DNA of 64,000 bases. It comes from Candidatus Omnitrophota bacterium. Lineage in GTDB: Bacteria; Omnitrophota; Gorgyraeia; JACQQV01. Positions 9,524-52,032 of the stretch are shown one piece after another. The stretch covers positions 302 through 64,301 of the forward strand of contig JACQQV010000010.1 in assembly GCA_016206785.1 (NCBI GenBank), written 5' to 3'. The position numbers were made by a program, and so were the translations under genes. The notes below the pieces were generated by a model, which was not told where the DNA came from, did no database searches, and saw only the letters and a list, made by a program, of their open reading frames with translations. The stretch's first letter is position 1. Every line of letters begins with the position of its first letter.

Positions 9524-9584
9524 GGACTAAGTCCCTCCTTCTTAGGGGATAGGTCTAAGCGTAAAAGGGACTTAGTCCCGCTTT
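9524..9584. repeat. REP-like palindrome family 2 (GGGACTAAGTCCC - 31 nt - GGGACTTAGTCCC).
   Basis: Two 13-bp self-complementary units lie between the convergent queD and bcp genes. Confidence 0.6.
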
Positions 9585-9586
9585 GC

Positions 9587-28123: not shown

Positions 28124-29347
28124 TTATTTTGTGCTTTGGATTTTGTCATTTGTCATTAGTTCTTTGCCTGCCAGAACGGTAACAAGCCGATCGATCACCT
28201 CGCCCATCACCCGGTCGGGTGTCGAAGCCCCTGAGGTAATTCCTATTTGAATGGGGCCTTCCTTCGCCCATTTGCACGTGACAGTGAGTTCCTTTTTTCC
28301 AACCGGCTTATGGCGGATTGCTTCCCGAGAAATGATGCATGCGGCATCTTCAATATGGTAGGCGCGCGTTTTTAAAACGGCGATTTCGCAGAGATGATTG
28401 GTATTGGAACTGTTGTAACCGCCGACGACGACCATCACGTCGACCCCCTCTTCCAAAAGACTGATTACCGCATCCTGCCGCTCTTGTGTGGCACTACAAA
28501 TCGTGTCGAAAGAGCGGAAATGGGTGTCGAGATTTTCCGGGCCATATTTTTTTGCCATCGTCTCGCCGAAAAGTCTGGCGACTGCCAGTGACTCACTGGA
28601 GAGCATCGTGGTCTGATTGGCGCACCCCACCTGTTCCAAGTCTCTCTCCGGATTAAAGCCGGGCGAAGCGACCCGGCCGAATTTTTTCAAAAAGAGTTCC
28701 TTGGAACCGCCGTTTAACATGTGGCTGCACACCTCTTTCGCTTCGTCGAGATCAAGAAGAACAAGAAATTTTCCGCCCGGAAATTGCGTGGCACGCGAAG
28801 AGGTGGCGCGTGTTTCCTCATGATCGAATTTCCCATGAATAATCGCTGTATAGCCGTCCTGCGCATACCGTTCCACCCGTTTCCAGACATGGACCACCGA
28901 CCCGCAGGTCGTATCGACGAGGATGCACCCTTTCGCCTTCAGTTTCTCAAGATCCGCAACCGGCACCCCGAAAGCAGGAATCAAAACAACCGCATCCGGC
29001 GGGACCGCATCAAATCCTCGCCCGTTCAAAAACGAAATTCCCATCTCTTTCAACCGATTGTTCACCCGGGGATTATGAATGATCTCGCTGGTGAGGTAAA
29101 TTTTCCGTTCCGGAAATTTGAGTCGGGTCTCATACGCGTAGTCAACCGCCTTGTCGACGCCGTAGCAGAAACCGAACTCCTGAGCGAGGCGGATTGTCAG
29201 ATCCCCGGTGCGATACGTGTGCCCCTCCGCCTTCAGTTTCTCCACGAGGGCGCTATGGTAGTCCTCGACCAGGGTCTCTTTGATCTCCCCTTTGAGACCA
29301 AAGCCATGCTTGTAATAGGTAGAATCTGTTGTGTTGGGTGCAGTCAT
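28124..29347 (-). CDS. ispH: 4-hydroxy-3-methylbut-2-enyl diphosphate reductase IspH, long form.
   Basis: It carries FGFCYGVDKAV, SEIIHNPRVN and three conserved Cys. Confidence 0.8.
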   Translation of the reverse strand: MTAPNTTDSTYYKHGFGLKGEIKETLVEDYHSALVEKLKAEGHTYRTGDLTIRLAQEFGFCYGVDKAVDYAYETRLKFPERKIYLTSEIIHNPRVNNRLKEMGISFLNGRGFDAVPPDAVVLIPAFGVPVADLEKLKAKGCILVDTTCGSVVHVWKRVERYAQDGYTAIIHGKFDHEETRATSSRATQFPGGKFLVLLDLDEAKEVCSHMLNGGSKELFLKKFGRVASPGFNPERDLEQVGCANQTTMLSSESLAVARLFGETMAKKYGPENLDTHFRSFDTICSATQERQDAVISLLEEGVDVMVVVGGYNSSNTNHLCEIAVLKTRAYHIEDAACIISREAIRHKPVGKKELTVTCKWAKEGPIQIGITSGASTPDRVMGEVIDRLVTVLAGKELMTNDKIQSTK

Positions 29348-29387
29348 AGTGAAAAAATTATAGCAGATTTAGGAAGAAAACTCAACG

Positions 29388-32300
29388 TCAAATCGCCTGT
29401 TCCACCAGCCTCTCCCTCGGCGACACCCTAGGAACAGGTCTAAGGCGAGTTGGGACTAAGTCCCTTTGAAGCGGAGACCTTCCCCTTTCGAAGGCGGGAC
29501 TTGGTCCCGATTCCTCCAATGCATCCCGCCGCCCGCCGTCCTGGACAGTTCCATCGTCTTTCTGAGTGATGAGGAACTTTACCGCCGCAAATGCTTCTTC
29601 CGCACCCTCTCCTTCTACAGTCAGTCTCACAGCATGACCCCGCTCTGCAGCAAGCATCATGAGCGATAGAATACTTCTCGCATTTGCTGCGCCACTTTTC
29701 CCCGTCACATTCATCAACCGAATTTGAGTTCCATCAAATCGCCGTGCGACCTTCACAATGTCCGTAAGCACCCTTAGGTGAAGACCGAGGAGATTCCTCA
29801 CCACGAACGTTCCTTCAATTTTCTTTTCACCGCCGTCACGGGCGGTCTCCTTCTCTTGGTAGATTGCAAGACTAACCCCAACAGGGAGACCACTTTGGGG
29901 TTTCGGCCAGACTTCTGTTTCTTTGAGGTCGAGGCCCGCAAGGACCGCTGCGAGCCGATGATCTTGGAATGGAATAATCCATTGCGCGGAGAGATAATGG
30001 GTCCCCCAATAAGAGACGGCAGCGACCGATTCCACCTTCATGCGGACGTTGGGATCGTTCGGAATTTCTTCTTCCATCTCTTCAGTCCTCGGCGTGTGAA
30101 GTTCCAAGAGGCTTAAACCGTGCCGGGCATAGGGGGCCCATCGTTTGAAGAACTGGATCAGGTCTGCAAAGAGGACCACGGATGGAACAAGGCGGCCCTT
30201 ACTGGAACCGGAGGTGGTGAGCTGTTGAACGACCAGCGCTACTACCGTTTCGTCATCAACGACATTTTTCCTTAAGAAATTATCCTTTTCAGGAAGATCT
30301 CTTTCCCCTGACGCCTTTAAGGCCTCCCAGAGCGCCCCGCGATCCACTTTTCCTATTTGCTCACGAATAATCTCCATCGCCTTTTCACGACCATGCGTTG
30401 GGTCATCTATAGAAAGCTTGAGATTTCGTTCATGAGGAATAAATTCTTGAGTATGATAAAAGTCTTTCGCCTCAAGTGGACCGACCTCTGGAATCTCTAA
30501 CTTTTTGATGGCCGCAGCAAATTCATCCGGATCGGTGGCATCTCCCCATAGGACTTTAAAGAAAACGCCTTCTAAGTCTCTAAGTTCTTTCGTGAGTGTG
30601 CCCCTCAAGGTATCGAGCGAGTCTTCGTTATAGTCCGAAGCGATCGCCACCAAGGGATGGGTTTTTAGATGCTTTCCCCCCTCTGTGTTCTCGACAATAG
30701 ACTTAACCCGTTCGACCACCAGGTGCCCGGCGCCGGCCCCCGTTGTGGCGATCCCGATCGGCTGTTCTTCAATCGGTAAGTCAAAGATCTTTTTATCGCG
30801 CGCTTTCAGACTTTCAAGATACGCCTCATGGGCACGATCTGACCCTAAGATGTCCAAAAGCCGATGAATATGATTGTCGTCGGAGATCCCCCACGGGTCC
30901 GGATCTCCCCAAAGGATCTCATGGAGGAGTTGGTACGATTTAAGATAGGCGACGGGTACCCCATAACTTCCAAATTTCGAAAGGAGGGCGCGGCCGAGCG
31001 GTGTCAGACGAATGACTTCTCCCTTTTCACCGTCGCGGGTCAGAAATTTCTGAGACTCCAAAAGATCGAAGGCCACATCCAAGAAATCGCGGTTATACCT
31101 TTTCCCAAGCTGCTCAAGATTCAACGTACTGTCTTTTTTAAATTTCTCTAAGACGGAAGGCCCGATCCTGGTAATCTGGTTTTCATGATGTCGATAGAGA
31201 CCGAAGCCGATCGCTGCAAGAGTTGGGCTTCTAATCATTCCAGTCAGATAACTCCGGATCTGTTCGGTAACCCGCTCAGCAATATAGAGTTCTTCTCCTT
31301 TCAAAAGACCCGTAGAGACGTAATGAGAGGCCTCGGGAAGATACCACCCTTTTATACTGAGATCGACAAGTTTGCGATATTCTCTAAGCGCCTCTTCACG
31401 CTTTTTAATTTCGGATTGCTTTCTGGGTGGAGGACCTCGAAAATAATGCGGGTAGTATTCCCTAAAACGTTCAATCGCTTGGATCAGTTCTTCAGGAAGA
31501 TAGCCCCCCTTTGCCATCGTCACAGCAACTTTTCCCTGAGGGGTAAGGGTGTAAGTCGTCCCCTCATCCACCCCTTTCACCCTCACCCATCCCTGAAGCG
31601 CCATGACCCGCATCGCGCCATAAAGATTCCCCATATTTTTCTCGGGCTTCTCAGGATTAAAAATTTCTGCAATGTGTCGAAGGGCTACCTCCTGCTCGCC
31701 TTCCCCAAACAGACCATAGTCTCTTTCCTCCGTCCCAAAAAGTCCTTTCTGAGTAAGATGGAAGAGCGTCGGAATTTCGACAAGGCCGTTGATATCCTGA
31801 AACACCATCGGGAGAATTGACCTCTTCTTGTCTGTAGAAAGAGCCTCTTCAAGTAAAATCTTGCGATGGCCATCTTGAGCCCCTTCCTCCTCCGGGGTAT
31901 ACTCTATACGGAGTTCCGCCTTAATGAGCTCGAGGATCTCTTCCGCATTCTCTCCTTCGACCATGATCTTGAGTTCGTCTCCCTCTTCTGCAGCGAGTAT
32001 CATCAGTTCCATAACGTTCTTGGCATTTGCAACTTCGCCCGTTTTAACATGCATGATGGCAACTTTACTTTTGGACGCATTTACAACCTTGGCAATCATT
32101 CCAGCGGGTCTTGCATGAAGCCCCAGAGGGTTGGTCACTGGAACGATTGCTTCAACCCGCTTCTCGCCACCGTCGGAAGCGCCCTTTCCCTCGCCCCGCC
32201 CCACCTTCTGTTCTCTTTTGGAAAGACCCGCTGCAGGGAATTCCCTTTCGTGCCGCAACTCCTTGAGGACCTGAGACAACTTGCTTCCTGGCGGGAAATG

Positions 32301-35225
32301 GGCCAGGAACCAAGCGCCCCATCGGGAGCCCCACCACTTCTGCCCCACGTCCGCATCGATGATCGCTGCAATTCTCGGAAGCCGCAGACTTCGGATATCT
32401 CGGGTGACACCGACATGGAATTTTTCAATATGGACCTTGTACAATGCCTCTTTTAAGGCATCTGATGGGATCTGGCTTGCCTTCTCCTGAATCGCAAGAA
32501 TCTGCTCGACTTTTTCTCCATGCAAAGTCTTCCCGCCTTTCTTGAAAAGTTCCTTCATCCTTGACCGTGCTACCATAGTGATCTCTTCGTCTGTAAGCAA
32601 AATAATCCTTGAGATCTTAACGACCGCTTCCTTTGGTAAAATACCTGTTTTCTTTACTTCTCCTTCTTTATCCAGATAATAAAGCTCCCGCCACTCTGGA
32701 CGAAGTTCGCGCAAAGGCCGCGTCCCTCCGAAAATCTTTCCACCGATCGCAAAGAGCCGTGTCAATTCATGACTCATTAAAGTCCAGCCTGGATAGAGGC
32801 GTCTACCCGTCATGGGATCTTTCGCCCCAACCAGAAGCCATGTCATATAGGAACGGCCGATTCCTTCTTGACCCACAAGAAGAACCGTCTCCTTTGTCTC
32901 TTCGTTGTAGAGAATATTCCCGTGGAAGACCTCGATGCCCAGGACCTGAGCCAGTTGTTCCCGATTCGGCATCTTCCCTCCTATATACAAGACCTCTTCC
33001 GCAACCTTCATCAGAGGTCCCTCCACGAGTTCTGAAATTTTTGCTCCTCTTTGGACGTCGTTTTGGATCTGTCTGACCCACCGGAGAATCTCGTTTTCCT
33101 CGGAAATGTCACGCCGTGTTAAGAGAGAAAGAACTTTTTTATCTTCTCGAGCAAGATCTTCCGAAACGATTTTGATCCGACGCGTGTGATTTGCCTGCAC
33201 CCTTTCCAAAAAGGACTTAGGAGATTCTTCTGTTTGTGTTACCCACTCTCCGTCTACGAAACGATCTACTTGGACGCCGTCCCGCCCGATAAACCGGAGT
33301 GCAATTCCTGCCCCTCCCTTAGCGACCGGATCATCAAAGTCAGTCCCCATGCTCCTATTTTGAATATTAAAGTTCGGGGCCCCCGTCATGATGGCGGTGA
33401 CTTCATGTCCTCCCTCTCCATCCACCTGGATCGATGGAAGAAATTCCTCAAGATTCAATTTCTGACTGTCCTCTTTCCAACCCGCAGCCATCACCGGTGA
33501 AAGCTCCACATTCATGAGATCATGGAAGACATTTGCCTTGAACGTATCGGTGGTCCGGATCAGTTCCTCCTTCCTATCCCAATCCGAAAAGGAAACTTCT
33601 TTCCCCCCTCCTAAAGCGCCAGGAAGTGAGCCCCCTACATAAAGAACTCCAAATTCATCCAAATGGTAAGTATAAAACCGCATTTTGATCCATTCTTCGG
33701 CAATCTCCCTGAGCCGTGGGTCTTCCCGGAAATTATGAAGATCGAGTTCTGGAATGAGTTTCGTTTCTTCCCCTTCTTCTTGCCGAATCACTTCATCATT
33801 GTAGTAACGAATTTCTTTATTCCTTGCCTCAAGGAAGGCCTCACCACCATACACACTGTCCCAAGCCCCATCCAAACCAGGATAACCCATCATGGTAAAA
33901 AGAAAGACAAGGTCATCCGGTTGGAAGATATAGACCCCTCTTCCTTCAAACTTTTTTTCAAACTCCCGAAGCATGTCATGCACAACAAGAGGAGATCCTC
34001 CGCCAAGCGAGCGACCACGGCTTTTTCCGAACAGGTCTCCCATGAGGATGATCTTATCCACCCGCCGTTCCACCGCTCTCTGGAGCATGAGATTGAGCGC
34101 CCTTGCATCTCCTTTAATATCCCCAATGATAGCCGTTTCCGGAACCTCTGGGTCTCCCTCTCCGTTGATGGTCCGGACGACCCGTTGATACTCTTCTGCC
34201 CGTCGAAGACGTTTGAGCGCCGTGGAAAGATGGATTCTAAAATCTTGCGGGATATTCACATCGGAAAGCGCTTCCTCCGGCCATCCTTTTGGATTGAGGA
34301 GGCGTACAATGGGAGGAATGGCAAGACTCAATGCAAAATTGGTGTAAATCTGGCGGGTGCCTCTCGAGAGATCGATAAAATTTCTCGCAAAACGCCTTTC
34401 AATCTCGTCGACCGTTGCCATATAGCGGTTTAGGAAATCTTTGTCAACGGAAATGACCCCTTTGTCGGAAAGTTGTTCAAGATATTCCTTCAATTTCTCT
34501 CTTTTTGGTTTCTCGATAAGAAGAAGACGCCCCATTTCTCCGAGAAGACCGAAGACTTGAGGAGTAAATCCAATGGCAGAAGATCCGATCAGTTCCGGAT
34601 CGTGACGGATGGCTGAGGAGCGGAGAAGAGTGACCCAGAATTCCCAGAAAATTTCCTCTGGAGGTGCATGGGCAGGGTCTGCAAGGGCTTCATGGACCAG
34701 AACACGCTCGCGGCTTTCTCTGCGGAGGAGTGTTTTCATCCCGCGGGCAAACCTGAAATGATGATGCCGTGCAAGACTTGCAAAAAGCTCCCTTGTCTTC
34801 CGATACGGCTCTTCGTCTTTGTTCAAAAGTTGCGAGAAAAGGGTATAAGGACTTGTTGGAGGTTTGTGAGGAACGAGATAGCCTCTCGCATCAACGGCCT
34901 GAACCCCTTTAAAAATTTCAATTTTTCCCCCAAGAATTTCGGTCGGAAGACCCCGTCCAAGCAAGACATAACTGGAATGGAACTGGGGAGACTTGGCCAG
35001 AGGGCTGACGGTATGTTCACCGCCATCTCTTGCGGATGTCCCAGAAATCGCTTGTCGAAGGGTCGGGTCAAAGGCGGCCGATTTTGGCCTCAACAAAGAA
35101 GAGCCTGGGCAAGGGGAAAAACGTCTCCCCACTGCGGAAGGGAAACGCTCCCCTGCCCAGGCCCAGTCCAAAGGAAGGGTGGTGAAGAGAAAACATTCAA
35201 GTAGGATCAGTGAGATGATGCGCAT
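29388..35225 (-). CDS. Giant (1945 aa) multidomain protein with two HPr-like phosphocarrier domains and a degenerate calcineurin-like phosphoesterase motif. Function unknown.
   Basis: The 5.8-kb ORF is uninterrupted and has a hydrophobic N-terminus. HPr domain 1 reads PVTNPLGLHARPAGMIAKV...ANAKNVMELM and HPr domain 2 reads VVRNLLGLHLRVLTDIVKV...ANARSILSLM. The motif pair IIGDIKGD...ILMGDLFGKSRG resembles the GDxHG/GDxxDRG metallophosphatase motifs with the His replaced. Confidence 0.6.
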   Translation of the reverse strand: MRIISLILLECFLFTTLPLDWAWAGERFPSAVGRRFSPCPGSSLLRPKSAAFDPTLRQAISGTSARDGGEHTVSPLAKSPQFHSSYVLLGRGLPTEILGGKIEIFKGVQAVDARGYLVPHKPPTSPYTLFSQLLNKDEEPYRKTRELFASLARHHHFRFARGMKTLLRRESRERVLVHEALADPAHAPPEEIFWEFWVTLLRSSAIRHDPELIGSSAIGFTPQVFGLLGEMGRLLLIEKPKREKLKEYLEQLSDKGVISVDKDFLNRYMATVDEIERRFARNFIDLSRGTRQIYTNFALSLAIPPIVRLLNPKGWPEEALSDVNIPQDFRIHLSTALKRLRRAEEYQRVVRTINGEGDPEVPETAIIGDIKGDARALNLMLQRAVERRVDKIILMGDLFGKSRGRSLGGGSPLVVHDMLREFEKKFEGRGVYIFQPDDLVFLFTMMGYPGLDGAWDSVYGGEAFLEARNKEIRYYNDEVIRQEEGEETKLIPELDLHNFREDPRLREIAEEWIKMRFYTYHLDEFGVLYVGGSLPGALGGGKEVSFSDWDRKEELIRTTDTFKANVFHDLMNVELSPVMAAGWKEDSQKLNLEEFLPSIQVDGEGGHEVTAIMTGAPNFNIQNRSMGTDFDDPVAKGGAGIALRFIGRDGVQVDRFVDGEWVTQTEESPKSFLERVQANHTRRIKIVSEDLAREDKKVLSLLTRRDISEENEILRWVRQIQNDVQRGAKISELVEGPLMKVAEEVLYIGGKMPNREQLAQVLGIEVFHGNILYNEETKETVLLVGQEGIGRSYMTWLLVGAKDPMTGRRLYPGWTLMSHELTRLFAIGGKIFGGTRPLRELRPEWRELYYLDKEGEVKKTGILPKEAVVKISRIILLTDEEITMVARSRMKELFKKGGKTLHGEKVEQILAIQEKASQIPSDALKEALYKVHIEKFHVGVTRDIRSLRLPRIAAIIDADVGQKWWGSRWGAWFLAHFPPGSKLSQVLKELRHEREFPAAGLSKREQKVGRGEGKGASDGGEKRVEAIVPVTNPLGLHARPAGMIAKVVNASKSKVAIMHVKTGEVANAKNVMELMILAAEEGDELKIMVEGENAEEILELIKAELRIEYTPEEEGAQDGHRKILLEEALSTDKKRSILPMVFQDINGLVEIPTLFHLTQKGLFGTEERDYGLFGEGEQEVALRHIAEIFNPEKPEKNMGNLYGAMRVMALQGWVRVKGVDEGTTYTLTPQGKVAVTMAKGGYLPEELIQAIERFREYYPHYFRGPPPRKQSEIKKREEALREYRKLVDLSIKGWYLPEASHYVSTGLLKGEELYIAERVTEQIRSYLTGMIRSPTLAAIGFGLYRHHENQITRIGPSVLEKFKKDSTLNLEQLGKRYNRDFLDVAFDLLESQKFLTRDGEKGEVIRLTPLGRALLSKFGSYGVPVAYLKSYQLLHEILWGDPDPWGISDDNHIHRLLDILGSDRAHEAYLESLKARDKKIFDLPIEEQPIGIATTGAGAGHLVVERVKSIVENTEGGKHLKTHPLVAIASDYNEDSLDTLRGTLTKELRDLEGVFFKVLWGDATDPDEFAAAIKKLEIPEVGPLEAKDFYHTQEFIPHERNLKLSIDDPTHGREKAMEIIREQIGKVDRGALWEALKASGERDLPEKDNFLRKNVVDDETVVALVVQQLTTSGSSKGRLVPSVVLFADLIQFFKRWAPYARHGLSLLELHTPRTEEMEEEIPNDPNVRMKVESVAAVSYWGTHYLSAQWIIPFQDHRLAAVLAGLDLKETEVWPKPQSGLPVGVSLAIYQEKETARDGGEKKIEGTFVVRNLLGLHLRVLTDIVKVARRFDGTQIRLMNVTGKSGAANARSILSLMMLAAERGHAVRLTVEGEGAEEAFAAVKFLITQKDDGTVQDGGRRDALEESGPSPAFERGRSPLQRDLVPTRLRPVPRVSPRERLVEQAI
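29462..29509. repeat. REP-like palindrome family 2, second locus (GGGACTAAGTCCC ... GGGACTTGGTCCC).
   Basis: It has the same unit and spacing as at 9524. It lies inside the extreme 3' end (low-complexity tail) of the giant ORF. Confidence 0.55.
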
Positions 35226-35485
35226 GGTTTTAAAAGAGTTTCAAATCGGGGTAAACAAAAAACCGAGTTCCATTTTCAGGCAACTCGGCAGTCTATCGTT
35301 CAGATCCGCAGTTTTGTGCCCCAGCCTCTCGGCTGGTTTACCATTCTCTGAAAGGACTTTCTTCCAACTTGAAACTTATGGGGAAAGTATACCTTAGAGA
35401 AGAGGATTTTTCAAGGGAGTATTTATAACTTCTGCGTCTACTAACACATCATAACACTTTAAATTATATATAGATATGAAATGGA

Positions 35486-35926
35486 TTATTTGGGGCCTAT
35501 TTTTTCTCCGGTTTGGAGTCGATTTTGGATCTGTTCGGGCTTAAACCGGCTCACGCGGGCTTCGTTCTTCTGATCACCCTCTCCTAACTTTTTAAGGGGG
35601 ATTGAATGGGTCTCGATCGGCTTCTTGATCGGTTCTCTTTGGGGGGAAGTGGATGCACTTCGTAATTTCTTAGGAGAATGGGTTTCGAGCTTTTTGATAA
35701 GAGTTCTTTCAGGATTGGTTTCAAGCGGTTTCTGAATTGTATCTCCTTTGATCGGTTTCCCCTTTTCTTGCGCGGCAAGGAATCGATCCGCTTTCGCTTT
35801 TTGTTCAGGAGTCTCCGAGACCTTCTTTGTTGTGTCAGATGCTGCGATCGGAATGAACCCTAAAACGAAAAGTAAAACGATTAGGATTCTTTTCAATTCC
35901 AAACGCCTGGGATCGTTCGTTTGCAT
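35486..35926 (-). CDS. Small Lys/Pro-rich repetitive protein with an N-terminal TM or signal segment. Hypothetical.
   Basis: It is low-complexity with KKxETHS-type repeats. The start is uncertain and overlaps the 3' end of the neighbouring gene. Confidence 0.25.
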   Translation of the reverse strand: MQTNDPRRLELKRILIVLLFVLGFIPIAASDTTKKVSETPEQKAKADRFLAAQEKGKPIKGDTIQKPLETNPERTLIKKLETHSPKKLRSASTSPQREPIKKPIETHSIPLKKLGEGDQKNEARVSRFKPEQIQNRLQTGEKIGPK

Positions 35927-36951
35927 GTTGGACAGACACCGGTGGGTGTGAGGAGATCTTTCAAAATCGTATAGCCGTGACGTTCGATGAGAAGCGTCTT
36001 GCAGCCAGGGCAATAGGTGTTTTCATATTTTCCAACTTGGCCCGGCAGATTTCCCGCATAAATAAACTTTAGTCCGGCGGCTTCGCCGATCTGCGCAGCC
36101 CGAAGAAGTGTTTTGGCATTGGTATTGTCCGGTTCCTGCATCTTGTAATCTTTGTGGAAAGCGGTCACATGCCACGGAATTTCCGGTGAAACTGAAACAA
36201 GAAATTTTGCGATCTGCGCAAGTTCCTCATCCGAGTCATTGAAACCCGGGATGGTCAAGGTCACAATCTCCACCCAAAACCCCATCGACTTGAGTCGTTC
36301 GATTGTTTCAAGAACCGTTTTCAACACCCCTCCCAGTTGCCGATACTGTTTATCGTCAAATCCTTTGAGATCCACCTTATAGAGGTCGACCCAGGGGCGG
36401 ATATAACTTAAAACTTCCGGCGTTCCGTTTCCGTTCGAGATATAGGCGCATTTGAGATTTTCTTGCTTGGCGACCTGAAACACCTCCACCGCCCATTCGC
36501 TCGTAATCAACGGCTCGTTGTAGGTACTGGCAATGACCGGGGCATGATATTTTTTGGCAAGACTCACAAGTTCCTTGGGTCTGGTTGGCATCGGATGAGA
36601 AATGACATCCGGATCGCGAAGGACCTGAGAAGTCAAAAAGTTCTGACAATACGGGCAGTGGTAATCACATCCGAGCATACCGAAGGAGAGGGCGTCTCTG
36701 CCAGGAAAGGCATGAAAGAAAGGTTTTTTCTCGATCGGATCGCACTGGAGCGCCCCAACATATCCTGTCGGAACATAGAGAATCCCATCCCGGTTAAACC
36801 GGACTCGGCAGATACCATCCCTTCCCTCCCGAATGAGACACCGGTGGCCACAGGCAAAACAACGGAGTTCCTTATTGGGGAGCTTTTCATAAAGGGCCCC
36901 TTCGTGGGTGTGTCCGGCGAGAAGTTGTTGGAGGGTAAGCGTCTGCGGCAT
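35893..36951 (-). CDS. AmmeMemoRadiSam-system radical SAM enzyme.
   Basis: It has an N-terminal CFACGHRCLIREGRDGIC Cys cluster and the CDYHCPYCQN radical-SAM motif. The C-terminal CPTCKR pair and the 352-aa length are typical of this family. Confidence 0.75.
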   Translation of the reverse strand: MPQTLTLQQLLAGHTHEGALYEKLPNKELRCFACGHRCLIREGRDGICRVRFNRDGILYVPTGYVGALQCDPIEKKPFFHAFPGRDALSFGMLGCDYHCPYCQNFLTSQVLRDPDVISHPMPTRPKELVSLAKKYHAPVIASTYNEPLITSEWAVEVFQVAKQENLKCAYISNGNGTPEVLSYIRPWVDLYKVDLKGFDDKQYRQLGGVLKTVLETIERLKSMGFWVEIVTLTIPGFNDSDEELAQIAKFLVSVSPEIPWHVTAFHKDYKMQEPDNTNAKTLLRAAQIGEAAGLKFIYAGNLPGQVGKYENTYCPGCKTLLIERHGYTILKDLLTPTGVCPTCKRTIPGVWN

Positions 36952-43793: not shown

Positions 43794-44937
43794 GCTGGGC
43801 CCCCTTCTTCAGGACCTGAACTTTGTCGAGAGCCTCCCACGTAAAATCTTCATCGGCCCTCCCAAAATGACCGTAGCAGGCGGCCTTTTTATAAATCGGG
43901 CGACGGAGCTTGAGATCCCGGATGATGCCGCGGGGGGTAAGATCGAAATTCTCCCGCACCAGTTTTTTGAGTTTCTCTTCGGAAACCTTTCCTGTTCTTA
44001 AGGTGTTGACCATCACACTCACCGGCTCGGCCACCCCGATCGCATAGGCGAGTTGAATTTCACATTTGTCTGCAAGGCCCGCCGCGACGATATTCTTGGC
44101 AAGGTAGCGCGCCATATAGGTGGCGGAACGGTCCACCTTTGTAGGATCCTTTCCCGAGAAGGAGCCGCCGCCGTGACACCCGTATCCGCCATAGGTATCG
44201 CTGATAATTTTTCTTCCCGTAAGCCCCGTATCTCCCTGCGGTCCCCCCACCACGAAACGCCCTGTCGGGTTAATGTAAATCTTTGTATTTTTATCAATCA
44301 GTCCTTTCGGGATTACTTTGTCAATCACCATTTTTTTAAGGACATCCCGAACCTCTTTGATTTTGACCTTATCGCTATGATGGGCGCTCAGGACAACCGC
44401 CTCGGCCCGTTTTGGGTGGCTATCGATATATTCAATCGTGACTTGGCTCTTCCCATCGGGACGGAGGAAGTCCACCGCCTTCCCTTTCCGAATCTCTGCA
44501 AGGGCATGGGTGAGCTGATGGGCGAGCATAATGGGAAGAGGCATCAGTTCCGGTGTTTCTTTCGTCGCGTACCCGAACATCATCCCCTGGTCCCCTGCGC
44601 CTCCCGTATCGACCCCCAAGGCGATATCCGGGGATTGTTCCTGAATGCTTGTGATGACGCCACAGGTAAGATAATCAAAGCCATAGACCGCATCGGTATA
44701 TCCGATCTCTTTGATCGTGGAGCGTATAATTTTCGGAACGTCGACATAGCAGGTGGTCGTGACCTCCCCCGCCACGACGGCCAACCCTGTGGTGACGAGT
44801 GTCTCACAGGCTACCCGTCCGTTCGGGTCTTTATCGAGAATAGCATCCAGAATGGCATCTGAAATTTGATCGGCAATCTTATCGGGATGGCCTTCTGTGA
44901 CCGATTCAGAAGTAAATAAATAAGTACCGCTCCTCAC
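43786..44937 (-). CDS. metK: S-adenosylmethionine synthase.
   Basis: It carries [13 protein letters not shown] and GGGAFSGKD. Confidence 0.9.
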
Positions 44938-45710
44938 GTGTTAACCTCCTTTTTAAATGCGCCTGCAGCCTTCTGATAGGATGCAAGGTCGCCAATATCA
45001 TACCATGTCCCCGTCGAAGGGTATCCATAGACTGTCTCTTTCTGCGAGAGCCAGCGGAGGAAAAATCCGGGAGCATCTTGCGGCGATCCTCCCTGAAGGT
45101 AGGTGTCTATCTGCCCCAACACCTCTTTTGGGAAATAGTAGACCCCCATCGCAGAAAGGGTCGATTGGGGGTGTTCGGGTTTCTCTTCAAAGGAAACGAT
45201 GCGGCTTTCTCCGTCCAAACCGACAATGCCATACTGTCGCGCCAATGAAAAATCTTTTACATCATACAACATGACAGAGGAAAAGGGGGATTTTTTTTGT
45301 GCGGATTGAACAAAAGGTCGGAGGTCGATGTCGAATAAGTTGTCGCCGGCCACCACCAAAAGGTCCGACCGCACCTTCCGCTCACGGATCGTGAAGCGCA
45401 TGTCCCCGATCGCTCCCAACCTATTGCCCTCATGGGTGGACCCGTCATCCAAGAGGACGAGCGGCTTGGAGGAACGGTATGATTTTTTCCACTTTTCAAA
45501 CTGGGAATAGAATTTATGGTTGACGACGAGGGTGGCGTCGTCTACGCCGTCGATTTTCTCGATATGCCCGAGAATATATTCAAGGACCGGTTTGCCGCCG
45601 ATGTCCAAAAGAGGTTTCGGCTTCGACTGGGTCAAAGGATAAAGGCGCGTCGCGTAACCGGCGGCAAGAATAAGGGACTTCACCCCGTTAGACCTCCAAA
45701 ATGACCCCAT
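44934..45710 (-). CDS. Sugar-phosphate nucleotidyltransferase (NTP_transferase family).
   Basis: It has the [15 protein letters not shown]...KPLL signature. Confidence 0.65.
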
Positions 45711-45737
45711 CAGACGAGAGAGGTCTAACGGGGTTCA
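45680..45737. repeat. REP-like palindrome family 1, copy 2.
   Basis: TCACCCCGTTAGACCTC ... GAGGTCTAACGGGGTTCA lies between the nucleotidyltransferase start and the PGI/PMI stop. Confidence 0.7.
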
Positions 45738-46814
45738 TCGCTTCGCCAACTGCTTTTTCAGGCGTTCGATCCGTTCAACGGGTGTAGGATCGACACGATT
45801 CAAGATCGCCAGGTAGTAACTGACGAGATCTCCCAAATAGATGAGGGAGAAAAGCCGTGACAACCTCCCGCGGCCCGAAGACCAGACCTCCACCGTCTCT
45901 ACCCCTTCTTCCCGACGGAGAAGGGTCTTTGTAATTTCCATCCTCCGCTTGACGCGTTCATGATCGCCCGGATCCCTTAAGAGGAGGATAAGAAGATGCC
46001 GCAAAAGGGGATCGGGCTTGCGCCATCCGACAATCTCATTGTGATTGAGTTCAGGATAGAGATGACTCCAGGAGAGTTGTTTGGAGTTTTCCGCAATTTG
46101 CGTTCGCCAACGGTAGACGACGGCATCTAACCTCTGAACATTGCCATGAATGGCCGGGATGCGCCCCCAAAGATGTCGTGCAAGCCGTTTCGCCGGATTC
46201 TGAGAGAAAGGAACATGCGGGCCGACTTCCTTCTCCCGAAGACGATGGAGCGTCTTCAACAATTCCTGAAATTCAGACTGCCGAAGCGGAAGACGGGCCA
46301 GTCGGCGCAAGAGGACATAGGGTGCGAAGAAAAGATACCCAAGGGCCGTCCGTGGCGGAAGGCCGGAGGGAATGAGAAGATGCGACACACCCTCCCGCTT
46401 CGCCCATTCCATCAATTTTCCGCCGGAACTCACGGCGATGAGGTGGGCCCTTTTTCGGCGGGCTATCTGATACGCGGTGAGTGTTTCTTCCGTATTGCCA
46501 GAATAACTGATTGCAAAAACAAGCGTCTTTGAATTCACAAAAGCAGGAAGGTGGTAAGAACGGTTTACAGCGATCGGAAAAGAGACCTCTTCCTCAAGAA
46601 GAGATTTCACGAGATCCCCCCCAATCGCCGAGCCTCCCATACCGAGGAAAAGAACGTTCTGAAAAGAGAGCGCGCGAGGAAGGGCAAACGCTTTCCCCAA
46701 TGCCCAGGCACGTTCACACTGGGACGGAAATTCACAGAGAAGCTCCAACATGCCTTGGGGATCGAGGCGCTGGAACTTCTTGATCGCTTGAAGCGTATGC
46801 GTGCGACGGGTCAT
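45735..46814 (-). CDS. Bifunctional phosphoglucose/phosphomannose isomerase (SIS domain).
   Basis: It has two SIS-like halves (GMGGSAIGGDL) and a PGI/PMI-type architecture. Confidence 0.7.
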   Translation of the reverse strand: MTRRTHTLQAIKKFQRLDPQGMLELLCEFPSQCERAWALGKAFALPRALSFQNVLFLGMGGSAIGGDLVKSLLEEEVSFPIAVNRSYHLPAFVNSKTLVFAISYSGNTEETLTAYQIARRKRAHLIAVSSGGKLMEWAKREGVSHLLIPSGLPPRTALGYLFFAPYVLLRRLARLPLRQSEFQELLKTLHRLREKEVGPHVPFSQNPAKRLARHLWGRIPAIHGNVQRLDAVVYRWRTQIAENSKQLSWSHLYPELNHNEIVGWRKPDPLLRHLLILLLRDPGDHERVKRRMEITKTLLRREEGVETVEVWSSGRGRLSRLFSLIYLGDLVSYYLAILNRVDPTPVERIERLKKQLAKR

Positions 46815-48559
46815 GGCTCTCCCATAAAAATTTTCTTTGTCATTTTTTCGAGATAGGCTTCAACTTCTCTTCCCGTCGAAAGTGAAAGCGCTTCTTCTGC
46901 AATTTTCTTCGCTTCACCCATCTTGACCGATCGGATGACCCTCTTGATCTCCGGAAGGTTTACCGCGCTTGTGGAAAAACCGTCCAGTCCCAATCCGAGA
47001 AGGATGAGCGCCAGTCGCGGATCACCAGCCATTTCCCCGCACATCCCGACCCATAAATGATGTTTGTGGGCTGTATCAATGATATGCTTCACAAGACGGA
47101 GAACCGCCGGGTGCGCAGGTTCGTACAGATAAGCAATTTTTTCATTCGATCGATCGACGGCGAGGGCATACTGGATGAGATCATTGGTCCCGATGCTGAA
47201 AAAATGGACCTCTTTGGCAAGGAGATCGCAGGTCAAGGCCGCAGAGGGGATTTCGATCATGGCACCCACTTCGATCTTTTCATCGAATGGAATTTTCTCC
47301 CGACGCAACTCCTCCTTCACCTCCCGGAAGAGGGCGTTGGCTTGTCTCAACTCTTCCACCCCTGAAATCATCGGGTACATCACCTTCATTTTTCCCTTGG
47401 CACTCGCTCGCAGGATCGCCCGCAGTTGTACTTTGAAGATATCGGGACGGGCCAGGCAAAACCGGATGGCGCGCCACCCCAAAAAGGGATTCATTTCATT
47501 CGGAATGTCCAATTGAGAGAGAAATTTATCTCCTCCGAGGTCCAACGTTCTCACAATGACGGAATGAGGCTGGACTTCCTGCACCACCTTGTGGTACGAC
47601 TCGAAATGTTCCTCTTCGGTGGGAAGATCTACCCGATTCATGTAAAAATACTCGGTCCGGTAAAGCCCGATTCCCTCTGCGCCATGGGCAATGACCGAAG
47701 GGATTTCATGAGGAAATTCGATATTGGCCGCAAGGGTCACCCGGTGCCCGTCCAAGGTTTCCGCGGGGAGATCCTTCAGTTTGAGAAGACTCCGGCCGAA
47801 TTCCTCAAGACGCTTTTGTTCTTCTGTATACCGACGGATCGTCTCTTCCGTCGGATTGATAATCACAAGGCCCTGCGCACCGTCGATAATGAGGAGATCG
47901 TCCTTGGAGACCCTCTGGGTCACCTCTTCGAGACCGACCACGGCCGGAATCTCAAGCGACTTCGCCATAATCGCCGTGTGAGAGGTGCGCCCCCCGATAT
48001 CCGTGACAAACCCCTTCACGTTCTCTCGATGCATGAGGGCTGTGTCTGAGGGGGAAAGGTCGTAGGCCACCACAATCACAGGTTCCTTGAGATCCTGAAG
48101 GGTCTGCCGCTGTTTTCCCAGGAGGGTCCGTAGGACCCGTTTCCCCACGTCCTCGATATCGGAAGTCCGCTCCCGGATGTATTCGTCTTCAATCTTCGAA
48201 AAGGCATGGATGTATCTTTTCAAGACATCGAGGAAGATATAATCGACGACGACTTTCTCCGCCTTCACGCGTGTGATGACTTCCTCGATCAGGGTGCGAT
48301 CCTCGATGACCAAAAGGTGCGCACTAAAGATTTCTCCTTGCTCCTTCCCCATCTCTTCGAGGATTTTCTTCTGAATACGGAGAATTTCGGCACGCGTCTG
48401 GATCAGGGCATCTTCAAAACGGGCGATCTCACCCGCCACTTCTTCCTCGGCTATCTCCTGCCTCTGAACGCTAAATCCCTCGCTATCGAGAAAAAAAGGG
48501 CGTCCGATGGTCACGCCGGCTGAAGCGGGTATGCCTTTGAGGGTTTCTTCTGGGTTCAC
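46811..48559 (-). CDS. ptsI: Phosphoenolpyruvate-protein phosphotransferase (PTS enzyme I).
   Basis: It contains the EI N-terminal, phospho-His and PEP-utilising domains, including GGRTSHTAIMA. Confidence 0.9.
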   Translation of the reverse strand: MNPEETLKGIPASAGVTIGRPFFLDSEGFSVQRQEIAEEEVAGEIARFEDALIQTRAEILRIQKKILEEMGKEQGEIFSAHLLVIEDRTLIEEVITRVKAEKVVVDYIFLDVLKRYIHAFSKIEDEYIRERTSDIEDVGKRVLRTLLGKQRQTLQDLKEPVIVVAYDLSPSDTALMHRENVKGFVTDIGGRTSHTAIMAKSLEIPAVVGLEEVTQRVSKDDLLIIDGAQGLVIINPTEETIRRYTEEQKRLEEFGRSLLKLKDLPAETLDGHRVTLAANIEFPHEIPSVIAHGAEGIGLYRTEYFYMNRVDLPTEEEHFESYHKVVQEVQPHSVIVRTLDLGGDKFLSQLDIPNEMNPFLGWRAIRFCLARPDIFKVQLRAILRASAKGKMKVMYPMISGVEELRQANALFREVKEELRREKIPFDEKIEVGAMIEIPSAALTCDLLAKEVHFFSIGTNDLIQYALAVDRSNEKIAYLYEPAHPAVLRLVKHIIDTAHKHHLWVGMCGEMAGDPRLALILLGLGLDGFSTSAVNLPEIKRVIRSVKMGEAKKIAEEALSLSTGREVEAYLEKMTKKIFMGEP

Positions 48560-48610: not shown

Positions 48611-48892
48611 TCATTTTTCCTTTTCTAACTCCACAAGGCCTTTTCCGAGAAGGTCTGAAAGTTCCCTCATGGCGCGCTCGGCGTCTTCTCCCCTGGCAGA
48701 GATCTCCACCTTGCTCCCCTTCTCGCATCCGAGCATGAGAATCCCCATGATCGATTTTCCGTTCACTTCTTCCTTCCCTTTTCGAACCACAATCTCCGAC
48801 TCGAATTTACTCGCAAGTCTCACAAAGACCGCCGCGGGTCTGGCATGAAGGCCCTGTTTATTCTTAATCACCACCGTCTTGCGAACCCACAT
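48611..48892 (-). CDS. ptsH: Phosphocarrier protein HPr.
   Basis: It carries GLHARPAAVFV with His15 and Ser46 (GKS). Confidence 0.9.
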   Translation of the reverse strand: MWVRKTVVIKNKQGLHARPAAVFVRLASKFESEIVVRKGKEEVNGKSIMGILMLGCEKGSKVEISARGEDAERAMRELSDLLGKGLVELEKEK

Positions 48893-50932: not shown

Positions 50933-51402
50933 CAGAGTTTGCTTTGATCCTCTTTTCGGATGATGGACAAGATTTCCTCGACGGTCTTTGCCTTTCGAAG
51001 CGTGTTTCTAAAAAATTTGTCCTTTAAGAGTCGTGAAATCCGCGCCAAGGCCTTAAGGTGAGGGCCGGTCGAATCCTCCGGCGCTACCAAAAGGAAGAAA
51101 AGATAGACCGGCTCTCCATCCAGAGATTCAAAATTGACCCCCTTCTGGGAAAGACCGAAGGCCGACACAAGCTCCCGGGCCCCGTCCAATTTTCCATGCG
51201 GAATTCCGATGCCTTGTCCAATTCCCGTCGAGCCCAAGGATTCGCGATTCAAAAGGGACTTGATGAGTTTCCCGCGCTCCTTTTCATCAATTTTCTTTGC
51301 CTCAATTAAAAGGTCGACGAGCTCTTCAATGACTCCTTTCTTGTCTGCGGCCTGTAGATTCGGCGAGATCGCTTTGTCACTCAAAAAATCCATAATTTTC
51401 AT
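50932..51402 (-). CDS. ptsN: PTS EIIA of the fructose/nitrogen type (PtsN-like).
   Basis: It has the GIGIPHGK active-site His and is 156 aa. Confidence 0.8.
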   Translation of the reverse strand: MKIMDFLSDKAISPNLQAADKKGVIEELVDLLIEAKKIDEKERGKLIKSLLNRESLGSTGIGQGIGIPHGKLDGARELVSAFGLSQKGVNFESLDGEPVYLFFLLVAPEDSTGPHLKALARISRLLKDKFFRNTLRKAKTVEEILSIIRKEDQSKL

Positions 51403-51497: not shown

Positions 51498-51572
<75 letters not shown>

Positions 51573-51579
51573 AGAAAAT

Positions 51580-51664
51580 TGGTGGGCGGAAGAGGGCTCG
51601 AACCTCCAAGGATTTCTCCACAAGCTCCTAAGGCTTGCGCGTATACCAATTCCGCCATCCGCCC
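51580..51664 (-). tRNA. tRNA-Leu (TAG).
   Basis: It is 85 nt with a long variable arm, acceptor GGGCGGA/TCCGCCC and anticodon loop CTTAGGA. The CCA is encoded. Confidence 0.8.
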
Positions 51665-51711
51665 TTTTAATCCTCTATCCGCCATCGGTTTGGTGCAAAA
51701 AGGAAGTTCGT

Positions 51712-51783
<72 letters not shown>

Positions 51784-51813
51784 GAAGATCAAAACATATA
51801 TTATAACATAAAT

Positions 51814-51832
51814 GGCGTGCCTGGCAGGACTC
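51814..51832 (-). repeat. 19-nt exact direct duplicate of the 3' end of tRNA-Arg (GCGTGCCTGGCAGGACTCG), 126 nt downstream of the gene.
   Basis: The two copies at 51814..51832 and 51959..51977 are identical. This is an att-like partial tRNA duplication. Confidence 0.6.
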
Positions 51833-51958
51833 GGCGCCCTCCGCTCACTCCGTTCGCTTCGGGTCGGCCCCCCGCCCGCAAACCGCATGCTCCCTATTCG
51901 GTCGCATGCTGCGGGCTCCCTTCGAGTCCCAAAGGGCACGCATCGACGAGAAATTCAG

Positions 51959-52032
51959 CGTGCCTGGCAGGACTCGAACCTGCGACGCCCAGCTTCGAAG
52001 GCTGGCGCTCTGTCCAACTGAGCTACAGGCAC
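51959..52032 (-). tRNA. tRNA-Arg (TCG).
   Basis: The reverse complement is GTGCCTGTAGCTCAGTTGGACAGAGCGCCAGCCTTCGAAGCTGGGCGTCGCAGGTTCGAGTCCTGCCAGGCACG with anticodon loop CTTCGAA. Confidence 0.75.

Follow-up and report, generated by a model that had tools for sequence, protein, structure and literature searches.

The window, a 64,000-nucleotide stretch of a Candidatus Omnitrophota contig, carries on its minus strand one gene that joins two HPr domains, a degenerate metallophosphatase, an HprK/P-like P-loop domain and a methyltransferase in a single chain (Table 1). At NCBI the product is annotated as 'HPr family phosphocarrier protein'. The first-pass annotation had described a single 1945-aa ORF, and this is borne out on the minus strand, where the frame is uninterrupted and neither a stop nor a frameshift occurs across 5.8 kb; read on the plus strand, the same interval is full of stops, and that reading was rejected.

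Table 1. Features of the locus. Positions count from the first nucleotide of the window; residues are those of the giant protein.
Feature	Residues (aa)	Position	Strand	Remarks
Giant ORF		29388..35225	-	1945 aa + stop; NCBI MBI4436113.1, Candidatus Omnitrophota MAG
Sigma-70-like promoter		35386..35414	-	TTGAAA-17-TATACT; 10/12 matches; conserved in L002 and L011
c-di-GMP-I-clan riboswitch aptamer		35275..35351	-	5' leader; best model RF03167 (c-di-GMP-I-GGC)
Intrinsic terminator		35257..35288	-	CCGAGUUGCC...GGAACUCGG then U6; conserved in L002, L003, L008, L011
Conserved leader	1-69	35019..35225	-	Sec-signal-like hydrophobic segment, then WAWAGERFPSAVG, SLLRPKS, final DGG
DGG mark, leader/core border	67-69	35019-35027		
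Alpha-helical domain	70-350	34176..35018	-	Part of conserved core; fold unassigned; low-confidence model
Pseudo-metallophosphatase	351-700	33126..34175	-	Motifs I GDIKG, II GDLFGKSRG, III QPDD, IV YVGGS, V GGHEV
HprK/P-fold P-loop domain (predicted)	~745-900	32526..32993	-	Walker-A-like GQEGIGRS (785-792); LMSHE replaces catalytic LVADD
Helical C-terminal core part and disordered linker	901-1015	32181..32525	-	
DGG mark, core/HPr1 border	1018-1020	32166..32174	-	
HPr domain 1, type A	1023-1108	31902..32159	-	His15, Arg17 kept; Ser46 to Asn
DGH variant mark	1118-1120	31866-31874		
Cargo module	1141-1790	29856..31805	-	AprA-MT1-like methyltransferase: AprA_N, winged helix, Methyltransf_36
DGG mark	1797-1799	29829-29837		
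HPr domain 2, type B	1802-1890	29556..29822	-	His15, Arg17, Ser46 kept
DGG mark	1896-1898	29532-29540		
Pro/Arg-rich tail		29391..29531	-	Conserved end VSPRERLVEQAI-COOH; family motif [EG][QG][SA][IL]-COOH
CBM48 protein		2771-4567		
Nucleotidyltransferase		44934-45710		
PGI		45735-46814		
ptsI		46811-48559		
ptsH		48611-48892		
GH57		48896-50932		
EIIA-Ntr		50932-51402		

The giant gene is real and under purifying selection. The identical protein is present in the NCBI MAG (67.6-kb contig), a near-identical copy with the same architecture occurs in an independent Logan assembly, and an orthologue of 82% identity (P0002) was assembled in at least three other, separate metagenomes, so that the giant gene has been assembled independently several times. 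Against that orthologue, dN/dS is 0.18-0.25 over the core, the pseudo-enzyme domains included. The odd length of the ORF, and a cargo that is not the same in relatives, might suggest an assembly chimera, a frameshift fusion or a decaying pseudogene uniting separate HPr, methyltransferase and other genes. The several independent assemblies together with a dN/dS of about 0.2 argue that the protein is not a chimera, and the unbroken frame, the even GC and GC3 along the whole ORF and module borders that match a conserved peptide mark, not gene ends, make such an origin extremely improbable. A defence-system or phage origin was rejected as well, PADLOC giving only a sub-threshold LmuC signal and IMG/VR no relative.

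The two HPr-like domains proposed in the first reading of the locus are present, with GLHARP at aa 1035 and GLHLRV at aa 1814, a spacing of 779 residues. Both are recognized by PF00381 (aa 1025-1103, E 1.5e-21; about 1804-1887, E 1.7e-19), TIGR01003 is matched at 108.9 bits against a cut-off of 47.9, and the open-faced beta-sandwich fold of HPr was found. Compared with the bona fide ptsH of the same genome, the domains are 32-38% identical. His15 is retained in both and Ser46 in the second only, as had been noted, the first having Asn. Across the family, His15 is kept in 13 of 14 HPr domains and Arg17 in 12. At position 46 of the HPr adjacent to the core, most members have N, D or E (Gly in P0003, Ser in P0005), and the cargo is often followed by a second HPr that retains Ser46; most of the family shows this split. 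Type A HPr is 60% and type B HPr 48% identical in members whose cores share only 22% identity. In GLHARP, His15 and Arg17, and in Ser46 of type B, these domains resemble HPr itself and the HPr domains of PTS multiphosphoryl-transfer proteins (FPr, DhaM, MTP). They differ in that the giant protein has two distinct, separately conserved HPr types, the core-adjacent one lacking Ser46, and in that their partners are a pseudo-phosphatase, an HprK-fold domain and non-PTS enzymes instead of EIIA, EI or DhaM modules.

Immediately upstream of HPr1 lies the domain that the first reading had overlooked. In predicted structures it adopts the fold of the HprK/P catalytic domain (PEPCK-like P-loop): HprK/P ranks first in Foldseek, also with an independent model, and a smaller AlphaFold model (aa 730-1125) confirms this. 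Sequence searches return no Hpr_kinase match in Pfam or NCBIfam and none in the PDB at E <= 10, and hhalign pairs GQEGIGRSY with GDSGIGKSE, LMSHE with LVADD, and HGNIL with HGVLV. The order of elements (HG..., P-loop, acidic pair, G.AP.L) is that of the HprK/P C-terminal catalytic domain (PDB 1ko7, 1jb1, 1knx, 3tqf), and the domain shares a chain with the partner that it would be expected to bind, HPr; the MurE-like N-terminal domain, in contrast, is missing, and the domain is embedded in a core of about 950 aa. Clear differences can also be discerned in the active site. The Walker A lysine is Arg in the window protein, P0012 has GSKGIGVS at this place, and P0008 and P0011 lack the motif; the Asp-Asp pair has become His-Glu, and the LEIRGLGII signature is absent, the region reading WRELYYLD. 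In the distant branch formed by P0008 and P0011 the DD pair is kept and the P-loop lost. Replacement of the Walker A lysine normally kills kinase activity. As the P-loop still has the form GxxGxGRS, binding of phosphate or pyrophosphate, or catalysis, may persist. No separate hprK gene was found among the approximately 45 window ORFs scanned.

The N-terminal part of the core was described earlier as a degenerate metallophosphatase on the strength of the pair GDIKGD and LMGDLFGKSRG, and both motifs are there (aa 368 and 394). Homology was confirmed by the core profile, which, in a library of 1.84 billion proteins, matches P0010, P0014, P0015, P0018, P0019 and P0020 (E 9e-12 to 2e-4) in the regions that Pfam calls Metallophos; a direct match to PF00149 is not obtained, with no Pfam hit to aa 1-1000 even at E 5. 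Motif-by-motif alignment shows the loss of ligands: GDxHG has become GDIKG, GDxxDR GDLFGK, GNHE QPDD and HAG GGS, so that motifs I, III and IV no longer have their His/Asn residues, and only the GH of motif V and the two Asp are left. Compared with the calcineurin-like metallophosphoesterases of that subfamily (PF00149), homology extends over about 300 residues with five alignable motif positions, but the giant-protein domain has replaced metal and phosphate ligands and stays below every Pfam threshold, which suggests a pseudo-enzyme or new chemistry. Foldseek matches it weakly to the YfcE phosphoesterase. By sequence, the core profile has no match in the PDB, and a second alignment matched HPr only; the preceding helical domain (aa 70-350) has no Pfam or PDB sequence match. 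The first AlphaFold model of the whole core had a mean pLDDT of 53 and served as a lead only.

Every member of the family possesses this conserved core of about 950 aa, composed of helical, metallophosphatase-fold and HprK/P-fold P-loop domains and followed directly by HPr, with interchangeable cassettes downstream and in some members upstream. The family is very rare, with five full-length clusters among 1.84 billion representatives, and its members range from 1022 to 3155 aa. In the window protein the cassette is a methyltransferase (PF23525, 120 bits against a cut-off of 27; PF23526, 32 against 27; Pfam E 1e-34) that matches PDB 6b39 by sequence at E 6e-18 across the GxGxG SAM motif region and is 57% identical to its counterpart in P0003. 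In relatives the cargo consists of acyl-CoA dehydrogenases (ACAD), phosphoglucomutase (PGM), or proline dehydrogenase (ProDH) with GNAT. The earlier statement that no known family matches the architecture holds insofar as no curated family covers it, but the 650 aa between the HPr domains are AprA-MT1-like (PF23525/PF23526). Profile and structure-sequence homology relate the module to the AprA MT1-type metal-dependent C-methyltransferases of polyketide loading modules (PDB 6b39, 7uci; PF23525/PF23526/PF23589). Unlike those enzymes, it has no PKS, ACP or GNAT context, HPr domains lie on both sides, and motif I reads TTGAGAG instead of DMGCGDG, the GxGxG region being the part inspected.

What might mark the borders between such exchangeable modules? 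Exposed linkers with an invariant Asp-Gly-Gly lie between modules in all members except the divergent P0005, which has no DGG at all. In P0002 the two HPr types are adjacent, joined as HPr-A-DGG-HPr-B, and in the window protein the methyltransferase cassette sits exactly between the DGH on the HPr1 side and the DGG on the HPr2 side. In the family as a whole, 28 DGG were observed against 5.7 expected (P about 2e-11), an enrichment of about five-fold. A compositional quirk of the organism was rejected, as other window proteins have 2 against 3.8 expected, and so was a DNA-level recombination signal, since the codons differ between sites; this variation points to selection on the peptide. The protein could be viewed as a bacterial polyprotein that a dedicated protease from elsewhere in the genome, such as a C39-type double-glycine peptidase, or the core itself, cuts at DGG (after Gly-Gly or after Asp), freeing leader, core, HPr-like proteins and enzyme. 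C39 peptidases cleave after Gly-Gly. The mark stands at every module border whatever the neighbour, leader/core and cargo/tail borders included, and in the second AlphaFold model (aa 730-1125) the two marks that it spans, DGG 1018-1020 and DGH 1118-1120, fall in linkers with pLDDT below 50 that are probably flexible. Preprints on Omnitrophota giant proteins report that C39 peptidase domains recur in them, and propose that the chains are cleaved after translation (10.1101/2023.11.21.568195; 10.64898/2026.06.07.730766). Against this, no protease was identified within the protein, the peptidases of the window are of MA type and M48 only, and no C39 peptidase was found among the approximately 45 window ORFs scanned; the residues upstream of DGG do not, by inspection, fit the classical double-glycine leader consensus, P0005 has no DGG, and duplication of modules that bring a conserved hinge with them could yield a similar pattern. 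Cleavage at DGG is thus a real possibility, though we consider it somewhat unlikely. It is compatible with the HPr-recognition role for the core that is set out below.

The ends of the protein raise the question of where it resides. The hydrophobic N-terminus and the Pro/Arg-rich tail reported earlier are both present, aa 1-21 being the sole hydrophobic segment. The N-terminus resembles the Sec signal peptides of other window proteins, which implies that the protein may leave the cytoplasm, and hence EI; export would part it from cytoplasmic EI and PEP and from the cargo cofactors SAM, FAD and CoA. In P0004 and the L011 gene, 18-20 aa are inserted between the hydrophobic segment and AWAG, which casts doubt on a simple signal-peptidase site. 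Unrelated giant proteins also carry the conserved C-terminal tag Q[SA][LI] and the leader AWA..P[ST]AVG. Omnitrophota are reported to depend on hosts (PMC10066038), and a signal peptide or TM segments are reported for most of their giant proteins (10.64898/2026.06.07.730766). It is conceivable that a host-dependent or predatory nanobacterium exports or injects the protein as an effector, its HPr and HprK-like modules and metabolic enzymes acting on or inside a partner cell, for instance by engaging that cell's PTS or carbon-catabolite machinery; cofactor-dependent cargo makes sense only inside some cytoplasm. In this case the Sec leader and the conserved C-terminal tag would serve as export signals. 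The support is circumstantial throughout: the locus has neither a linked secretion system nor a linked host-targeting domain, and two members have the leader insertions, so that we regard an effector role as unlikely.

Upstream of the gene, the aptamer scores 63.2 bits with the RF03167 covariance model (gathering score 59, E 1.4e-12), and the same element precedes the tandem giant genes of L002 (61.3 bits against 59). At the gathering threshold it was not detected in the sister loci L003, L005, L008, L010 and L011, where another conserved leader sequence takes its place, and it is therefore present in only two of the seven distinct loci examined. The 5' arm of the terminator is the 3' strand of the aptamer, which identifies the terminator as the expression platform. 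Transcription begins at the sigma-70-like promoter and passes through the riboswitch, and binding of the ligand, c-di-GMP or a related cyclic dinucleotide, would block termination and switch the gene on. Like c-di-GMP-I (GEMM-I) riboswitches, the element exceeds the curated threshold, lies in a 5' leader and overlaps an intrinsic terminator; the downstream gene type, in contrast, is new as far as found, and the ligand of the GGC variant is putative. No diguanylate cyclase was seen among the approximately 45 window ORFs scanned. Surface and lifestyle genes are commonly under c-di-GMP-type riboswitches (PMC7266159), a further point in favour of the effector role. With the riboswitch, the cyclic-dinucleotide regulon gains a new class of genes, and signalling by second messengers is linked to PTS-derived modules in a phylum that is uncultivated and probably host-dependent.

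The first-pass annotation had pointed to the PTS and glycogen genes of the neighbourhood; it missed the riboswitch, the regulator attached to the gene. All the listed genes were located, and no EIIB/C occurs among the window ORFs scanned, but the functional link amounts to proximity at 12-20 kb and these genes lie outside the conserved synteny of the family. Except for the divergent P0005, all traceable members are flanked by a radical-SAM gene and by lytB in loci of Omnitrophota type, with radical SAM/ABC-2 upstream and lytB/peptidase MA/Rrf2/iscS downstream; a scan of GTDB genomes found the P0005 locus only. The annotation's proposal was a cytoplasmic phosphorelay hub, in which EI~P or HPr~P would phosphorylate both His15 residues and thereby regulate the methyltransferase, carbon-storage enzymes or both, with the core as an accessory. 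Consistent with it are ptsI, ptsH and EIIA-Ntr without a permease among the window ORFs scanned, the His15 and Arg17 that nearly all HPr modules keep, the resemblance of the domains to genomic ptsH, and cargo enzymes of cytoplasmic type. The Sec-signal-like N-terminus and the distance to the PTS genes speak against it, and it leaves the invariance of the pseudo-HprK and pseudo-phosphatase unexplained; on balance it is rather unlikely.

We tentatively favour the reading that this is a multi-enzyme protein built of modules, with a pseudo-kinase/pseudo-phosphatase core that binds the HPr modules of the protein itself. HprK/P contacts HPr around helix 1 and Ser46, the contact is antagonised by phosphorylation of His15, and S46D mimics P-Ser-HPr. 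The core would be a non-catalytic or re-purposed hub for HPr recognition, its kinase-like domain having retained the HPr-binding fold and not the kinase chemistry. It could hold or release HPr modules, either in cis or from one subunit to another, and in this way position or gate the attached enzymes. The strong conservation of His15 and Arg17 suggests that the contact is tuned by His15 phosphorylation, which EI might provide if the protein is cytoplasmic, or a partner elsewhere. DGG may additionally serve as a processing site. HPr and its kinase are textbook proteins of carbon regulation, normally separate small components, and here both folds occur in one multi-enzyme chain. Since the kinase chemistry has been dismantled and purifying selection persists, the HPr-HprK interface is probably put to a non-canonical use, in scaffolding, gating or targeting. 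A more elaborate version, by analogy with cohesin and dockerin, makes the pair an assembly device: an HprK-fold hub, catalytically dead and perhaps a hexamer, would capture HPr 'tags' on interchangeable enzymes within a riboswitch-controlled polyprotein, cut at DGG and exported or delivered through Omnitrophota-specific leader and C-terminal sorting, with His15 phosphorylation as the release switch. This version is speculative and decidedly improbable.

Searches of the literature on HPr in giant proteins or polyproteins, on PTS-HPr with Metallophos and on HprK fusions returned nothing relevant. A close parallel is with the 'multi-enzyme metabolic cluster' giant proteins of Omnitrophota (10.64898/2026.06.07.730766; 10.1101/2023.11.21.568195), which share the phylum, the N-terminal signal-like segment and the tiling of unrelated enzyme Pfams (methyltransferase, GNAT, PGM) in one chain, and for which proteolytic processing has been proposed. 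Neither preprint refers to HPr or HprK-like domains, to DGG marks or to a riboswitch, and with its 1945 aa the window protein is ten- to a hundred-fold shorter than the catalogued proteins of at least 10,000 aa. The DGG marks provide concrete candidate cut or hinge sites of the kind that earlier work describes as missing, and the family, with two to three thousand residues and clear borders, is a small and tractable model for the far larger, so far uninterpretable multi-enzyme giants of the phylum.

The giant HPr-bearing proteins join an invariant part, two dismantled enzymes that purifying selection maintains beside an HPr domain, to a variable part made of enzymes, each with an accompanying HPr. 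The 1945-codon ORF of the first-pass annotation runs without interruption on the minus strand (read on the plus strand, the frame is riddled with stops), and GC and GC3 are uniform over its whole length. An exact look-up places the window in a Candidatus Omnitrophota MAG, where the protein, MBI4436113.1, is annotated "HPr family phosphocarrier protein" and nothing further. Because an independent Logan assembly holds a near-identical copy, because the 82%-identical orthologue P0002 was recovered from three or more further metagenomes, and because every core segment has a dN/dS of 0.18-0.25 between the window gene and P0002, a chimera or pseudogene is ruled out for practical purposes. The dS between the two genes is 0.11 in the HprK-like segment but 0.58-0.69 in the flanking segments, which suggests recent recombination or gene conversion inside the gene.

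What does the core consist of? The first 1000 residues of the giant protein gave no Pfam match and no PDB sequence match. A profile built from the core alignment and searched exhaustively against 1.84 billion representatives retrieves, beyond family members, bona fide calcineurin-like phosphoesterases (E 9e-12 to 2e-4), and these matches coincide exactly with Pfam Metallophos regions. The motifs GDIKGD and LMGDLFGKSRG, from which a degenerate metallophosphatase had been proposed, are present; in the alignment GDIHG has become GDIKG, GDYFDR has become GDLFGK, GNHE has become QPDD and HAG has become GGS, the GH of motif V being the sole survivor. The profile matches and replaced motifs together show that the proposal was correct, and by its motifs the domain is a pseudo-enzyme, or at least a metallophosphatase no more. 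The core also contains a P-loop-like GQEGIGRS. Although the first AlphaFold model of the core was poor (mean pLDDT 53), its top Foldseek match was still HPr kinase/phosphatase; a second model, of residues 730-1125 with a 9-sequence alignment, has a mean pLDDT of 77, with 85-94 within the HprK-like domain. Alignment with authentic HprK/P by hhalign pairs HGNIL with HGVLV, GQEGIGRSY with GDSGIGKSE and LMSHE with LVADD, and from this pairing and the Foldseek rank the P-loop domain is assigned the HprK/P fold. The window domain differs from HprK/P in the Walker A lysine, in both catalytic Asp residues and in the LEIRGLGII signature, whereas the distant paralogues P0008 and P0011 retain the DD pair and have lost the P-loop.

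Both proposed HPr domains are recognized by Pfam, and NCBIfam TIGR01003 concurs. As first described, His15 is found in both and Ser46 in the second only, position 46 of the first being Asn; Arg17 is kept in both. HPr1, which adjoins the core, is 38% and HPr2 32% identical to the genomic ptsH product, and they are 41% identical to each other. Between the window protein and P0011, the HPr-A domains (the type of HPr1) are 60% and the HPr-B domains (the type of HPr2) 48% identical, whereas the cores are merely 22% identical, and HPr-A and HPr-B are two separately conserved types. Position 46 is Asn, Asp or Glu in HPr-A of most members and Ser in HPr-B; to judge from this residue, the core-adjacent HPr cannot be phosphorylated on serine. 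The S46D replacement is a mimic of P-Ser-HPr, and phosphorylation of His15 antagonises the interaction of HPr with HprK/P. The most economical candidate interpretation is that the HprK-fold domain would be retained for binding and not for catalysis, as a hub that recognizes HPr and so positions or gates the enzymes joined to it; since His15 and Arg17 are conserved, control would probably be exerted by His phosphorylation of the HPr modules. The EI-fed phosphorelay envisaged in the first-pass annotation may also operate, and is partly compatible with such a hub. The regulatory PTS and glycogen context on which it drew is present in the window (ptsI, ptsH, an EIIA-Ntr-type gene, GH57, PGI, a nucleotidyltransferase and a CBM48 protein), and the PTS genes lie outside the conserved block of the family.

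Among the 1.84 billion representatives the family comprises five full-length clusters at 50% identity, two fragments and three distant members; a word-index search of 5.8 billion sequences returned the same five clusters. The core of about 950 residues followed by an HPr domain is common to all members, and the cargo varies. In the window protein the cargo is a methyltransferase that the first-pass annotation overlooked: the 650 residues between the HPr domains match AprA_N, WH_AprA and Methyltransf_36 (E 1e-34) and, by sequence, the solved AprA MT1 C-methyltransferase 6b39 (E 6e-18). P0003 carries two acyl-CoA dehydrogenases and the same methyltransferase, P0004 a phosphoglucomutase, and P0002 modules without assigned identity; N-terminal to the core are GNAT, HPr and proline dehydrogenase in the divergent P0005 and the methyltransferase in P0008. 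HPr-A and HPr-B are adjacent in P0002, and in the window protein the methyltransferase cassette is inserted exactly between them.

Every traceable member but P0005 is flanked on one side by a radical-SAM gene, which may or may not contain an intein, and on the other by lytB, the wider order being sigma70, ABC-2, radical SAM, giant gene(s), lytB, peptidase MA, Rrf2 and iscS. The inteins contain a LAGLIDADG endonuclease. Beside the window ORF the syntenic radical-SAM gene lacks an intein, and its counterparts at L003-L005 and L011 have one. Tandem HPr-bearing giant genes are found at two loci, a P0012-type paralogue preceding a core-type gene. The source MAG of P0005 carries the label Planctomycetales, and P0005 is surrounded by other multi-enzyme giant ORFs, one of which, at least 3322 residues long, joins methylmalonyl-CoA mutase, acyl-CoA dehydrogenase, PP2C and an oxidoreductase; this locus also encodes ClpB-like AAA proteins and has gene overlaps of 4 nt. 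In public annotation P0011 begins at an internal TTG (6001); a start at the in-frame ATG at 5710 gives it the conserved leader and a length of about 1022 residues.

An Asp-Gly-Gly marks each module border, whatever the flanking domains, in all members save P0005. It occurs 28 times in the family, where 5.7 would be expected (Poisson P about 2e-11), and twice in 43 other window proteins against 3.8 expected; its codons vary from site to site. Two marks fall within the second AlphaFold model (DGG at residues 1018-1020, DGH at 1118-1120), and both lie in low-confidence linkers. The chain may be processed into separate proteins at DGG, which is partly compatible with the hub and agrees with the cleavage proposed, and the C39 double-glycine peptidase domains reported, for Omnitrophota giant proteins (10.1101/2023.11.21.568195; 10.64898/2026.06.07.730766).

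The single N-terminal hydrophobic segment and Pro/Arg-rich tail noted at first reading are both there. DGG-bearing members share a leader, a hydrophobic segment with (E/D)W..AWAG..P(S)SAV and then LLRPK, and a C-terminal [EG][QG][SA][IL]-COOH. P0009, P0016 and P0021, unrelated proteins of 2-2.6 thousand residues whose metallophosphatase is intact and belongs to the same subfamily, have the C-termini VMQAL, FLQSL and VLQSL (QAL/QSL), and P0009 has the leader AWA..PTAVG; since such end signals occur on unrelated giant proteins, they may be a lineage-wide sorting code. The N-terminus of the giant ORF resembles signal peptides of predicted exported window proteins, although two members have an 18-20-residue insertion before AWAG, which makes a simple signal-peptidase site less certain. 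The protein may also be exported or delivered to a partner cell, again partly compatible with an HPr-recognition hub. An N-terminus that looks like a signal peptide and cargo that depends on cofactors are in mutual conflict, as also noted for larger Omnitrophota proteins (10.64898/2026.06.07.730766).

A c-di-GMP-I-clan aptamer, not mentioned in the first-pass annotation, lies 50 nt upstream of the giant ORF ATG, and is itself preceded by a conserved promoter-like TTGAAA-17-TATACT. The 5' arm of the terminator hairpin is the 3' strand of the aptamer, from which we infer a transcriptional ON switch. At L002 the same aptamer precedes the tandem P0012 and P0003 genes, both behind this single riboswitch; the loci of P0002, P0004 and P0011 retain terminator and promoter but have a replaced or disrupted aptamer. 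Those of P0002 and P0004, which lack the GEMM aptamer, share another leader of ~130 nt, GAATGGGATAAGGTCRCGGCAGTGGTTCGAYGG...GAGCGAAGTCGARGGAGACCCCGAGGCAATGAAGCAGACCGAGGAAACCGAGTTGC, with the same terminator. This leader is about 90% identical although the proteins are only ~55% identical, and it matched no Rfam family; it may therefore be another regulatory RNA. The window encodes a 598-residue protein with AMIN, PilZ (c-di-GMP receptor) and CBM48/AMPK glycogen-binding modules, which makes c-di-GMP signalling plausible in this organism and would tie it to glycogen. A strong promoter-like element directly follows the giant ORF stop, and lytB probably has its own promoter.

Coordinates of features in the window, in the giant protein (aa) and at loci of its relatives
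Feature	Sequence	Position	Strand	Detail
Giant ORF	window	29388-35225	-	
HPr1	giant protein	aa 1025-1103		Pfam, E 1.5e-21
HPr2	giant protein	aa about 1804-1887		Pfam, E 1.7e-19
DGG marks	giant protein	aa 67, 1018, 1797, 1896		
DGH variant	giant protein	aa 1118		
HprK-like segment	window	32181-33125		aa 701-1015
c-di-GMP-I-clan aptamer	window	35275-35351	-	Rfam RF03167 (c-di-GMP-I-GGC), 63.2 bits vs gathering 59
Terminator	window	35257-35288	-	hairpin + U6, downstream of aptamer
Promoter-like element	window	29357-29385	-	TTGAGT-17-TGnTATAAT
lytB	window	28124-29347		
AMIN-PilZ-CBM48 gene	window	2771-4567	-	
Syntenic radical-SAM gene	window	35893-36951		
Radical-SAM gene with intein	window	610-2661	+	
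Radical-SAM gene with intein	L003 (P0002)	6206-8626		
Radical-SAM gene with intein	L011 (P0011)	3718-5289		
Tandem giant genes	L002	3565-18229		
Tandem giant genes	L010	3-7116		
Leader without GEMM aptamer	L003 (P0002)	9405-9600		
Leader without GEMM aptamer	L008 (P0004)	9520-9680		
P0011 gene from ATG	L011	5710-8778		
Giant ORFs beside P0005	L001	36-10004, 16590-23404		
tRNA genes	window	51498-52032	-	Gly-GCC, Leu-TAG, Lys-CTT, Arg-TCG
LemA and M48-peptidase/zinc-ribbon pair	window	55212-57432	-	
Inverse-autotransporter protein	window	60804-61652	+	

Each single fold is known (HPr, HprK/P, metallophosphatase, AprA MT), and Omnitrophota multi-enzyme giant proteins have recently been described (10.64898/2026.06.07.730766; 10.1101/2023.11.21.568195). 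Our literature search found no report of the pseudo-phosphatase/HprK-fold/HPr core, of the two conserved HPr types, of the DGG marks, of the leader and tail signals or of the riboswitch link; the family is clearly of interest to those who study the PTS or Omnitrophota. Elsewhere in the window, four tRNA genes lie between ptsN and mgtE, LemA is paired with an M48-peptidase/zinc-ribbon gene, and a short protein has an inverse-autotransporter beta-domain.
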